In this document: one piece after another, positions 34,849 to 62,595 of the stretch
How the letters are laid out: each line of letters starts with the position of its first letter
Position numbering within the stretch: position 1 is the first letter of the stretch
Sequence record: PV357171.2
DNA length: 64,000 nt
Direction: 5' to 3' (one strand)
Source: a phage
The notes under the pieces: model-generated
The model's input: the letters and a program-made list of their open reading frames with translations, nothing else
The model's database searches: none
What the model was told of the DNA's origin: nothing
Program-made: the position numbers and the translations under genes

Positions 34849-34877
34849 ATTATACAGAAAAATTTTCCTGAAAGCAA
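34849..34877 (-). promoter_or_regulatory. early promoter
   Basis: Reverse complement TTGCTT, 17 bp, TATAATAGATTCATAAATTTGAGAGAGGAG. Confidence 0.6.
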
Positions 34878-51944: not shown

Positions 51945-51973
51945 TTGCTTGATGTCTAAATTTATAATATAAT
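51945..51973 (+). promoter_or_regulatory. early promoter
   Basis: TTGCTT, 17 bp, TATAAT. Confidence 0.55.
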
Positions 51974-52006
51974 ATTTCCTATATGTATATTATAGGGGAT
52001 TTACTT

Positions 52007-52561
52007 ATGATTATAAAAGAAGGATGGACAAAAGAGTCCGCACGAGCTAGATTTATATACAACCCTGATACAGGGGAGATTTTTAACAGAGTAAATAGCG
52101 GACGTGCTAGAAAAGGAGAATTAGCCGGGTATATTGATAAATCTACGGGGTATGTTAGACTAGTATTATCTGGTAAAAGGATTAAAGGACATCAGCTAGC
52201 CTTCTTATATATGGAAGGCTATATACCTGATACCATAGACCATATTAATAGAATAAAATCAGATAATAAATGGACTAATCTAAGGGAATCATCGGCTCAA
52301 GAAAATGCTAGAAATATTAGGGCAAGAAGTAAATCGGGCTATTTAGGTGTTGGTTGGTATAAGCCAACCCAAAACTGGTGTGTTTATACTAAGGATAAAG
52401 ATGGAGTCCAAGTTAACGGAGGCTACTTTGCATACAAAGAACTAGAGTTAGCAGTTCAAAAGGCTAATGAACTTCGCTTACAGTTACATGGAGAAAACGC
52501 TGTTATAGAAGCTTTTGATTCCACAAAACCACTTCCCACATTAGAGGATCTTAATAAATGA
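52007..52561 (+). CDS. HNH homing endonuclease
   Basis: GYVRLVLSGKRIKGHQLAFLYMEGYIPDTIDHINRIKSDNKWTNLRE; ATG at 52007. Confidence 0.7.
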   Translation: MIIKEGWTKESARARFIYNPDTGEIFNRVNSGRARKGELAGYIDKSTGYVRLVLSGKRIKGHQLAFLYMEGYIPDTIDHINRIKSDNKWTNLRESSAQENARNIRARSKSGYLGVGWYKPTQNWCVYTKDKDGVQVNGGYFAYKELELAVQKANELRLQLHGENAVIEAFDSTKPLPTLEDLNK

Positions 52562-53037
52562 GTACATTCCACGTTTACACAGATGGTGCTTGTAAGTCTA
52601 ATCCGGGTTTAGGTGCTTGGGGATTTATTGTCTATGATGATAATGATGATCGTTTAGGTTCTAAATCTGGCTATAACCCTAAAACCACAAATAACGAGAT
52701 GGAACTCACGGCTATTGTAGAGGCTCTTCGCTGGTCTGTTAAAAAAGATAATAGACCAATTGCTATCTATACTGATTCTGCTTATTGCAAAAATGGTATG
52801 GAAAGTTGGATGTTTTCTTGGCAAAGGAAAGGCTGGAAGAAAGCAGATGGTGAAGTTCCTCTTAATCTAGAACTTTGGCAGGAAGCATTTAAATTAACAC
52901 AGCAGTATATCAACTTTCATAATACTAATCCTACCTTTATTAAGGTTAAAGGACATTCTGGTATTAGTGGTAATGAAGCTGTAGACGCCTTATGTAATAC
53001 AGTTATTACTGAAGCTGAAATGGCTGAGATGTTATAA
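52558..53037 (+). CDS. ribonuclease H
   Basis: YTDGAC...G.GAWG, TNNEMEL, YTDS motifs of RNase H1. Confidence 0.75.
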   Translation: MSTFHVYTDGACKSNPGLGAWGFIVYDDNDDRLGSKSGYNPKTTNNEMELTAIVEALRWSVKKDNRPIAIYTDSAYCKNGMESWMFSWQRKGWKKADGEVPLNLELWQEAFKLTQQYINFHNTNPTFIKVKGHSGISGNEAVDALCNTVITEAEMAEML

Positions 53038-53054
53038 ATAAATTAAAAATTTTC

Positions 53055-53083
53055 TTGCTTAAAGCCCTCTAATTTAGTATAAT
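53055..53083 (+). promoter_or_regulatory. early promoter with palindrome arm in its spacer
   Basis: TTGCTT, 17 bp, TATAAT; spacer AAAGCCCTC is the inverted repeat of GAGGGCTTT at 53102-53110. Confidence 0.6.
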
Positions 53084-53110
53084 ATTCGTATTGAAAGTGA
53101 GGAGGGCTTT

Positions 53111-53389
53111 ATGCGAATTTATAACTCAAATTCATTAGGATTTAAACCATTGAGAAAACGTGCACAATCACCTCGTCAAATAAGAAAGGCTAATATTGGT
53201 GAGCCAGAGACACGCCTTCCACCTCCTCCAGAACAACGTTTAGTTTATCTGGACGAAGAATTAGCTGAACGCGAAAGAAAAGCTCAAGAAGAGATTGAGC
53301 GTAAGAAAATGTGTACTGCTCCAGCGTATAATAAAGGGGCGTATCAATACGTCTCAGATGCCGAACAAGCTAAGATGGTTGGTAGATAA
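53111..53389 (+). CDS. hypothetical protein
   Basis: 92-aa ORF. Confidence 0.4.
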   Translation: MRIYNSNSLGFKPLRKRAQSPRQIRKANIGEPETRLPPPPEQRLVYLDEELAERERKAQEEIERKKMCTAPAYNKGAYQYVSDAEQAKMVGR

Positions 53390-53405
53390 TTTTTAAAAAA
53401 TTCAT

Positions 53406-53434
53406 TTGCTAAACGCTTCAAATTCTTGTATAAT
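53406..53434 (+). promoter_or_regulatory. early promoter
   Basis: TTGCTA, 17 bp, TATAATATACTTCATAAATT. Confidence 0.65.
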
Positions 53435-53472
53435 ATACTTCATAAATTGATAAACAAAAAGGAAAACAAATA

Positions 53473-53988
53473 ATGGCTAAGCAGAAAAACGCAAAAACTC
53501 AAGCAGCTCCGGCAGTTAAAACTTTCCCGAAGACTGAGGCTAATCGCAAAGCTCGGCTGGAACGTCACCTGCGTAAGCATCCTACCGATGCTCAGGCTGC
53601 GCAAGCACTGAATAATCCGGCTCCGATTCGTAAGAAGCCTAAAGCTAAAAATGCCACCCGTAAATCCTACAAAATGGTTATGTATGTAGAAAATTACGGC
53701 CACAAATCTGTCCCAGTTTCCCTGAGCTTCAACGCTGGAGCTGAATTGTTCTCTCGTAATGGTATGTCTATGAAAGACTATGAGAAGGCAGTTAACCAGA
53801 AGCGTAAACCAACAGCAGATGTATTGCGTGATACTCGTGGACAGTTTGGTTCTGTTAAGCCAAATATCTTTGGCGTAGAGTATAGTAAAGATAATGTTCG
53901 TGCTCTGTGTTACGGTGTAGGCATTAAGTTCACGGGTGATTCTGCTCGTAAATCTGCTAAACCAGCTCGTAAACGTAAAGCGAAGTAA
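53473..53988 (+). CDS. hypothetical basic protein
   Basis: 171-aa Lys/Arg/Ala-rich ORF. Confidence 0.4.
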   Translation: MAKQKNAKTQAAPAVKTFPKTEANRKARLERHLRKHPTDAQAAQALNNPAPIRKKPKAKNATRKSYKMVMYVENYGHKSVPVSLSFNAGAELFSRNGMSMKDYEKAVNQKRKPTADVLRDTRGQFGSVKPNIFGVEYSKDNVRALCYGVGIKFTGDSARKSAKPARKRKAK

Positions 53989-57955: not shown

Positions 57956-57984
57956 TTGCTTAAATACTTAAACTTCTGTATAAT
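57956..57984 (+). promoter_or_regulatory. early promoter
   Basis: TTGCTT, 17 bp, TATAATACTTTCATAAATTAATGAGAGGAAG. Confidence 0.65.
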
Positions 57985-62526: not shown

Positions 62527-62552
62527 ATAGCCCTCAAAGCGAGGGCTATTAT
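62527..62552 (+). terminator. hairpin, terminator-like
   Basis: 9-bp stem ATAGCCCTC / GAGGGCTAT, loop AAAGC; weak U-run. Confidence 0.4.
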
Positions 62553-62566
62553 CCAGAAAATTTCAC

Positions 62567-62595
62567 TTGCTAAATGCCGAGATTTTCTGTATAAT
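62567..62595 (+). promoter_or_regulatory. early promoter driving tRNA pair
   Basis: TTGCTA, 17 bp, TATAATATATTTATAAATT. Confidence 0.65.

Follow-up and report, generated by a model that had tools for sequence, protein, structure and literature searches.

A hairpin built around an early promoter may mask the T5.090 homologue's ribosome-binding site in read-through RNA of T5-like phages

Introduction

What does a gene gain from an inverted repeat (IR) that joins the spacer of its promoter to its own ribosome-binding site (RBS)? The question is raised by a gap of 73 nucleotides (nt) in the window, by which we mean the whole 64,000-nt stretch of phage DNA analyzed here (sequence record PV357171.2, one strand, 5' to 3'). 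The window belongs to a T5-like siphovirus, Tequintavirus (family Demerecviridae), and the gap separates the RNase H gene (positions 52558 to 53037, plus strand) from a co-oriented open reading frame (ORF) of 92 codons (53111 to 53389, plus strand), the homologue of T5.090. T5 is a classical model phage whose early promoters are widely used in expression vectors, and post-transcriptional control in T5 is almost unexplored. Our literature search found no paper mentioning T5.090 or this promoter sequence, nor one reporting the element. Here we present computational evidence that the promoter and the RBS are parts of a single hairpin, which may hide the RBS in RNA that reads through from upstream and leave it exposed in RNA made from the gene's own promoter.

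Results

The promoter of the 92-codon gene consists of the -35 hexamer TTGCTT (53055 to 53060, plus strand), a 17-nt spacer (53061 to 53077), and the -10 hexamer TATAAT (53078 to 53083, plus strand), with the ATG following at 53111. It agrees with the T5 early-promoter consensus, which is of the sigma-70 type, and the AKFV33 annotation places a "T5 consensus promoter" at exactly this site. A generic promoter scanner missed it only because TTGCTT agrees with TTGACA at three of six positions. An A/T-rich, UP-like stretch, aaattaaaaattttc (53038 to 53054, plus strand), lies immediately upstream, and similar stretches precede the other T5-type promoters of the window. From the usual distance between the -10 hexamer and +1, transcription is predicted to start at about 53090, 7 nt past the -10 hexamer. 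The Shine-Dalgarno (SD) sequence GAGGAGGG (53099 to 53106, plus strand), with the core AGGAGG at 53100 to 53105, ends 5 nt ahead of the ATG.

The initial annotation described AAAGCCCTC (53061 to 53069) and GAGGGCTTT (53102 to 53110) as exact reverse complements, the former inside the spacer between the -35 and -10 hexamers and the latter overlapping the RBS and ending at the ATG. Direct comparison confirmed each of these points: the 5' arm fills the first 9 nt of the spacer, and the 3' arm covers GGAGG of the SD sequence and reaches up to the start codon. The perfect repeat is in fact one base longer per arm, with 10 of 10 nt matching between TAAAGCCCTC (53060 to 53069) and GAGGGCTTTA (53102 to 53111), and it takes in the -35 hexamer's final T on one side and the first base of the start codon on the other. 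A U53070-G53101 pair brings the helix to 11 bp, and beyond one U-U mismatch TTGC/GCGA (53055 to 53058 with 53113 to 53116) adds further pairs; allowing a single mismatch carries the repeat into the second codon and, at its other end, into the -35 hexamer.

By itself, a repeat of 9 nt is unremarkable, because the window holds 29 perfect IRs of at least 9 nt with a loop of at most 40 nt, compared with 10.5 ± 3.0 in composition-preserving block shuffles. It is the complete hairpin that stands out. Folding showed that the whole element is an interrupted hairpin of 22 to 23 bp, spanning 53055 to 53116, with the -10 hexamer at its apex. From the base upward it comprises the outer pairs UUGC/GCGA, the 11-bp lower stem, an internal loop AA/AGUGA, an 8-bp upper stem, and the loop AAUAUUC (53081 to 53087). 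The 5' strand of the lower stem, UAAAGCCCUCU (53060 to 53070, plus strand), holds the 5' arm and thus the first half of the spacer; its 3' strand, GGAGGGCUUUA (53101 to 53111, plus strand), evident from both the repeat and the fold, holds the 3' arm with most of the SD sequence, the spacer between SD and AUG, and the A of the AUG. The upper stem pairs UUUAGUAU (53073 to 53080, plus strand), whose last three nt are the first three of the -10 hexamer, with GUAUUGAA (53088 to 53095, plus strand), which contains the predicted transcription start. The -10 hexamer therefore spans the upper stem and the apical loop, and the -35 hexamer takes part in the outer pairs and, through 53060 (paired with 53111), in the lower stem. 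In a 371-nt context, pair probabilities were 0.90 to 0.999 in the lower stem and 0.51 to 0.96 in the upper stem. The upper stem includes three G-U pairs and hence exists on the sense strand only. An additional outer helix, in which GTTATAAAT (53031 to 53039, plus strand) pairs with ATTTATAAC (53117 to 53125), is specific to the window; its 5' half reads TGATAAAT or TAATAAAT in most relatives, and the helix is probably incidental.

RNA covering 53038 to 53130 had a minimum free energy (MFE) of -24.5 kcal/mol (z = -4.0), and none of 200 dinucleotide shuffles was equally stable. Among 25,572 70-nt windows taken from both strands, the hairpin ranked 113th, and most of the stronger ones were GC-rich, terminator-like, or coding-region structures. 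RNA beginning at the predicted +1 (53090) reached an MFE of only -4.4 kcal/mol (z = -0.3). Accessibility of the RBS differed in the same way between the two transcripts. Opening 53096 to 53114 was predicted to cost 17 to 20 kcal/mol in read-through RNA versus 4.7 to 4.9 kcal/mol in a primary transcript extending to 53150, and a single direct comparison gave 19.2 kcal/mol for read-through RNA versus 3.7 kcal/mol for RNA from +1. The proposal of a 9-bp stem that sequesters the RBS was thus supported in silico as to sequestration and not as to size, since the predicted structure is an interrupted hairpin of about 23 bp rather than 9 bp closing a 32-nt loop. T5-type promoters are present further upstream, for example at 51945, and a terminator scan of the plus strand found no terminator-like site from 52621 to 53725, that is, none between the RNase H gene and the promoter. 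The stop codon of the RNase H gene (53035 to 53037) lies 23 nt upstream of the stem.

The hairpin is a property of this gene and not of T5 promoters in general. In a swap test, 17 T5-type promoter/RBS pairs of the window were recombined so that each promoter was joined to each leader (289 combinations). For the T5.090 homologue, its own promoter raised the RBS opening energy by 17.8 kcal/mol, the largest value in the 17-by-17 matrix; behind the other T5 promoters the same RBS gave a mean of 4.9 and a maximum of 12.2 kcal/mol. The z-score of the segment from promoter to ATG was -4.5 here, compared with +1.5 to -2.4 for the other 16 promoters. The assignment to this gene rests on these ordinary z-scores and on the lack of any own-pair effect once this pair is left out of the swap test. 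A T5-wide rule by which spacers carry anti-RBS sequences was accordingly ruled out (other 16 pairs, own versus swapped, permutation P = 0.40). Weak pairing was seen at the promoters at 57956 (plus strand), 42519 (minus strand), and 32647 (minus strand), with z-scores of about -2.3 to -2.4, none of them individually significant; there the -35 region TTGCTT pairs with an AAGC(A/G)AA-like sequence that follows the SD sequence and precedes the start codon.

From 52900 to 53500, the window shares 99.7% identity with Escherichia coli phage AZ23, and 442 phage records match this region, almost all of them Escherichia and Salmonella relatives of T5; in T5 itself (IMG/VR contig L018), the intergenic sequence is identical to that of the window. 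From the 442 records we compared a close set of 36 sequences, which represent Tequintavirus, Epseptimavirus, and Yersinia phage phiR2-01. Both promoter hexamers were invariant (37 relatives in the tally made for the hexamers), and the whole cassette was nearly so. Changes in the arms were either G-U-compatible transitions (C53066T, C53067T, and A53103G) or affected the inner end of the lower stem (53068 to 53070), where at least 8 bp were still left, and no true compensatory double change occurred among the 36 sequences. This comparison is not decisive because the spacer of the neighboring promoter has an equal number of variable sites (6 of 17). In phage UTK0009 the upstream gene is different, and the cassette is intact and still attached to the 92-amino-acid (aa) gene.

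Distant homologues, gathered by tblastn, IMG/VR, metagenome (7-sequence alignment), and protein-cluster searches, were more informative. Close relatives are near-invariant and distant ones rebuild the helix in shifted registers with unrelated sequence, which makes column-by-column covariation unsuitable; swap and permutation tests, shuffle z-scores, and strand asymmetry were therefore used in its place. Six distant lineages carrying the same gene keep the hairpin architecture with different arm sequences (z-scores of -3.7 to -8.2). Serratia phage Kamaji (67% protein identity) has the -35 hexamer, -10 hexamer, and upper stem of T5, and the arms AAACCTCC and GGAGGTTT (z = -4.9); it departs from T5 at about 12 positions clustered in the two arms, compared with 1 in the other approximately 36 promoter positions, and the arms are still complementary, in a register shifted by one. 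Contig L140 (73%) retains a T5-like 3' sequence, GAAAGTGAGG, with a new 5' partner, CCTCACTTTT (z of about -3.7 to -4.0). Contig L141 (70%) forms a perfect 12-bp stem, CCTAACTTTCTG/CAGAAAGTTAGG, around the -10 hexamer, together with outer pairs between the -35 hexamer and the SD sequence (z = -5.4). In L126, a freshwater contig in which the gene lies between those for a DnaB-like helicase and a primase, the 12-bp stem CTTCTGTTATTT/AAATAACAGGAG covers the SD sequence (AGGAG; z = -7.1). L054, a 350-kb jumbo-phage contig, has 9 + 14 bp and the loop AAUG of TATAAT (z = -8.2). In Stenotrophomonas phages, TATAAT occupies the loop of a 14-bp GC stem, and GUUUUGUG comes after the stem (z = -5.4). Comparison across relatives thus found the pairing rebuilt with different arms in seven lineages, T5 included.

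The Stenotrophomonas hairpins lie at 1040 to 1101 of contig L036, 1248 to 1308 of L048, and 1248 to 1309 of L056, followed by GTTTTGTG and directly upstream of the homologous gene; these loci have the apparent form of an intrinsic terminator superimposed on a sigma-70 promoter.

We compared 25 nonredundant promoters of the gene family with 37 promoters of other genes in the same loci under uniform criteria. A z-score below -3.5 was found for 7 of 25 family promoters, versus 2 of 37 controls (Fisher P = 0.018; Mann-Whitney P = 0.0065) and 0 of 16 other promoters in the window, and one of the two controls serves an operon that contains the family gene. A swap test with 30 family promoters gave a permutation P of 0.0002 (0.006 without the window). 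The distribution of z-scores across the family was bimodal, and a family-wide hairpin rule is only partly true, as 18 of the 25 promoters have none. The hairpin is absent from lineages whose gene lacks its own promoter, overlaps or abuts the upstream ORF, and is translationally coupled; these are Sugarland, Pectobacterium phages, and contigs L139, L143, L144, L146, and L149. A further candidate, the Providencia-type IR (TCTCAAAT/ATTTGAGA), was rejected as weak, with a z-score of about 0, and is partly explained by the generic T5 leader motif ATAAATTTGAGA. The promoter at 414 to 472 of L144 also folds unusually well (z = -4.4), its -35 TTGCT pairing with AGCAA just past the SD sequence; it belongs to a small ORF lying ahead of the family gene and overlapping it, and the statistics treated it as a control.

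The two strands of the element are not equivalent. The sense strand folds 4 to 13 kcal/mol more stably than the antisense strand in all seven structured lineages, and G-U pairs number 25 in the sense-strand folds of these lineages and 0 in the antisense folds. This asymmetry argues for an element that acts as RNA and against a DNA operator, because an operator or cruciform has no strand preference, whereas rightward read-through RNA does. The half-site motif, with up to one mismatch, was found 13 times in the window, compared with 12.95 expected. A search of Rfam returned no family at its gathering score and only subthreshold generic hairpins, such as MIR473 (22.8 bits against a threshold of 52).

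Discussion

On balance, we think it probable that the RBS of the T5.090 homologue is masked in read-through RNA and open in RNA from the gene's own promoter. RNA from an upstream promoter, such as that at 51945 or one beyond it, would contain both strands of the hairpin, the SD sequence and AUG would be buried in the lower stem, and 30S subunits would be excluded. Given the footprint of a ribosome, one terminating at the end of the RNase H gene would halt 23 nt short of the stem and be unable to open it. RNA from the sigma-70 promoter would begin within the hairpin's 3' half, at about 53090; it would be missing the 5' strand and have an essentially unstructured, translatable leader of 21 nt. 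Synthesis of the 92-aa protein would in this way depend on activity of the gene's own promoter and be shielded from read-through. We infer the start site, read-through in vivo, and the effect on translation. The contrast between read-through and proximal transcripts that the initial annotation had put forward is supported in silico by pairing probabilities, opening energies, the terminator scan, and the lineage comparison, in which other lineages rebuild the pairing with different arms and the sense strand folds better in all seven.

Several observations weigh against this reading. The upstream and internal promoters both look like T5 early promoters of the sigma-70 type, so that a difference in temporal class is not visible from sequence and the early/late rationale known from T4 is not evident here; this bears on the biological rationale and not on the masking mechanism. 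Early and late promoters of T5 have been reported to differ mainly in the discriminator (PMC7472727). The SD segment GAGGAGG (53099 to 53105) is also complementary to CCTCCTC at 53222 to 53228, within Pro-Pro-Pro-Pro codons 116 nt downstream in the same gene, and in a primary transcript that includes the coding sequence to 53230 the equilibrium cost of opening the RBS rises to 14.2 kcal/mol. The contrast between the transcripts would therefore be partly kinetic, with ribosomes loading before 53222 to 53228 is made. The main stem of L141 and of the Stenotrophomonas phages is located upstream of the SD sequence, which is covered only by weaker outer pairs, and in L054 the start codon, and hence coverage of the SD sequence, is uncertain. 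The 18 family promoters without a hairpin belong mostly to marine metagenome homologues that share only a C-terminal motif, and several lineages cotranslate the gene with upstream genes, which implies that expression from polycistronic RNA is not generally harmful. Finally, RNase III could also accept as a substrate a helix of this length (about 23 bp) and with such an internal loop, and cleavage could either unmask or destroy the RBS.

Processing by host RNase III is the alternative that we regard as unlikely but would take most seriously. The enzyme would cut the hairpin in read-through RNA and separate the RNase H and T5.090 messages; the RNase H message would keep a protective 3' hairpin, and the downstream message would have a 5' end close to that of the primary transcript. 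Masking of the RBS would then be incidental or relieved by cleavage, and the two processes could coexist. The element has the form of an RNase III substrate, about two helical turns of double-stranded RNA with an internal loop (22 to 23 predicted pairs and a 2-by-5 loop), and internal loops limit the enzyme to cutting one strand, which leaves a 3' hairpin (PMC1540722). The succession of an 8-bp upper stem, a 2-by-5 internal loop, and an 11-bp lower stem resembles the layout of T7 R1.1, and processing would explain why the Stenotrophomonas phages and L141 keep a strong stem that is itself clear of the SD sequence. Several T7 RNase III sites lie next to or over T7 promoters. On the other hand, the length of about 23 bp is dictated largely by geometry, with everything from the -35 hexamer to the ATG paired around the -10 apex, and the Rfam search found no matching family. 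We know of no RNase III site reported in T5, and, terminator-like ones aside, the 64-kb window showed no other comparable intergenic hairpin, whereas several sites are the rule in phages dependent on RNase III.

It is improbable that the hairpin has no function and is a chance by-product of promoter and RBS constraints, kept in T5 relatives through conservation of the promoter and RBS. Chance alone would yield about 10 perfect 9-nt IRs in 64 kb, the close relatives offer no true compensatory double change and a neighboring spacer that is just as variable, and most of the distant family members lack the hairpin. Set against this are z-scores of -4 to -8 in seven lineages with unrelated arms, compared with the 0 of 16 and 2 of 37 controls, and the divergence of T5 and Kamaji almost entirely within arms that are complementary in both; seven independent sequence solutions, together with the strand asymmetry, make chance unlikely. 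A leaky intrinsic terminator that insulates the gene from the upstream operon, in which the stem base GCCCUC/GAGGGC followed by UUUAU would halt some polymerases, seems to us less probable still. The Stenotrophomonas loci, with their GC stem, TATAAT loop, and trailing GUUUUGUG, make a convincing terminator over a promoter, the Kamaji stem is followed by UUUU, and a hairpin with the same GCCCTC/GAGGGC core stands just upstream of another promoter of the window (62527 to 62549). The T5 stem, however, is trailed by only three U residues, 32 nt separate its GC arms, and the terminator scan reports nothing at 53055 to 53120; termination cannot be the shared function because L126, L140, L141, and L054 have no U tract after the stem. 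Least probable of all, in our view, is an element that acts as DNA, either an operator (for autoregulation by the 92-aa protein or for another phage regulator), as the initial annotation had offered as an alternative, or a cruciform that modulates the promoter. The repeat does bracket the core promoter, a natural position for a repressor, its arm centers are 41 bp apart (about four helical turns), and its restriction to this gene family is what would be expected of an autoregulator with coevolving specificity. Complementarity is kept across lineages, however, while the sequence of the arms is not; some lineages have an unbroken complementarity of about 50 bp and not two short half-sites. The half-site is not enriched in the window, G-U pairs are found on the sense strand only, the antisense fold is always the weaker, and the 92-aa protein has no Pfam domain and is modeled as one helix plus coil.

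The best reading of the element is that it belongs with the promoter-dependent RBS masks of phage T4 and represents this type of control in T5-like phages. The T4 genes e (lysozyme), soc, 49, and I-TevI have hairpins that sequester the RBS in early and middle read-through RNA, with approximately 100-fold repression at e; the late promoter lies in the DNA encoding the 5' strand of the hairpin, and masking has been established experimentally (PMC3014915). As in these cases, the SD sequence and/or AUG would lie in a helix in the long RNA, and a promoter just upstream of the RBS would yield RNA without the 5' strand; in the T5 element the -10 hexamer is at the apex of the hairpin and the predicted +1 in its 3' half. 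Unlike in T4, the internal promoter is of the host sigma-70 early type rather than gp55-dependent and late, no temporal class difference is evident between the upstream and internal promoters, and the hairpin, found in Demerecviridae, is longer (about 23 bp, interrupted) and known from sequence and predicted folds. In Aeromonas phage Aeh1, an RNA hairpin sequesters the RBS of mobE, a homing-endonuclease gene within the nrd genes (cited in PMC3014915, references 105 and 106). There too an RBS is masked inside a nucleotide-metabolism gene cluster and the read-through RNA is not translated; the gene and phage are different, and, judging by sequence, the T5.090 homologue is no homing endonuclease. 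RNase III signals of T7 (R1.1 type) share the length of about two helical turns, the asymmetric internal loop, and the position between genes just upstream of an RBS (PMC1540722), but T7 has many such sites and only one was seen in the window. The Stenotrophomonas loci, with a GC hairpin, a U tract, and the -10 hexamer in the loop, exemplify terminators that overlap the next promoter, which the T5 element resembles in its overlap and from which it differs in having neither a usable U tract nor a short loop.

If confirmed, the element would be the T5 counterpart of the T4 e/soc/49/I-TevI masks, built on a host sigma-70 promoter, and would mean that translation of single genes can be shielded from read-through within long early operons that have few terminators. 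The same architecture in different sequences, specific to the sense strand, suggests that expression of the 92-aa protein is under unusual selection and makes the protein a sensible target for functional work. The layout is that of a compact natural "promoter-only" expression cassette that ignores upstream transcription and could serve synthetic biology. More speculatively, and we would not expect it to hold, a sigma-70 promoter within a two-turn hairpin could be a portable, gene-specific cassette for phrog_4593 with a role beyond masking, as an RNase III switch or as an insulator combining terminator, promoter, and RBS. Besides T5-like phages, the cassette is present in Stenotrophomonas phages, a freshwater phage, and a jumbo-phage contig, and it may have been reinvented or maintained for one protein family; as a switch, it may convert read-through RNA into the same mRNA that the promoter makes. 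Were either role, switch or insulator, true, infection would depend critically on the dose or timing of this small protein.

Additional observations

The AKFV33 annotation equates the two genes that flank the element with the T5 RNase H gene and T5.090. The upstream gene, the T5.091 homologue, was taken from the ORF list and is annotated as rnhA or RNase H in relatives. The downstream gene, likewise from the ORF list, is assigned to phrog_4593, a PHROG in the category of unknown function; its product has no Pfam domain, and the AlphaFold (AF2) model is of low confidence (pLDDT 66), with a single helix at residues 49 to 66 and the rest coil. In Klebsiella phage Sugarland (contig L035), the 92-aa homologue at 1189 to 1479 is unannotated and an out-of-frame overlapping ORF (1205 to 1555) is annotated instead; the homologue lacks its own promoter and shares sequence with the end of the upstream ORF, which it overlaps.

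Two kinds of gene vary in their position around this locus. An ORF resembling HNH_3 homing endonucleases (Pfam E = 4e-12) lies at 51983 to 52561 (plus strand), between the thymidylate synthase and RNase H genes. AKFV33 and T5_ev212 have small ORFs at that position and no HNH_3 ORF there, and in contig L141 an HNH_3 gene instead separates the 92-aa gene from that for RNase H. The other kind, a NADAR/YbiA-like gene about 450 bp long, forms a mobile indel near the 92-aa gene (1994 to 2443 in L002, 1482 to 1931 in L037, 574 to 1023 in L033, and 190 to 699 in L149); it follows the 92-aa gene in some T5 relatives and precedes it in UTK0009 and L149.

The window contains about 25 promoters of the T5 type. 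Those at 34877 (minus strand), 5855 (plus strand), and 53406 (plus strand) are presumably the classical T5 promoters PN25, PD/E20, and PH207 of expression vectors. Between 22546 and 22720, T5-type promoter matches on opposite strands (22546, plus; 22602 and 22702, minus) overlap in an apparently noncoding stretch, and a simple rule found no gene start downstream of them. The hairpin at 62527 to 62549, ATAGCCCTC-aaagc-GAGGGCTAT, which lies directly upstream of the T5-type promoter at 62567, is terminator-like with a weak U tract.

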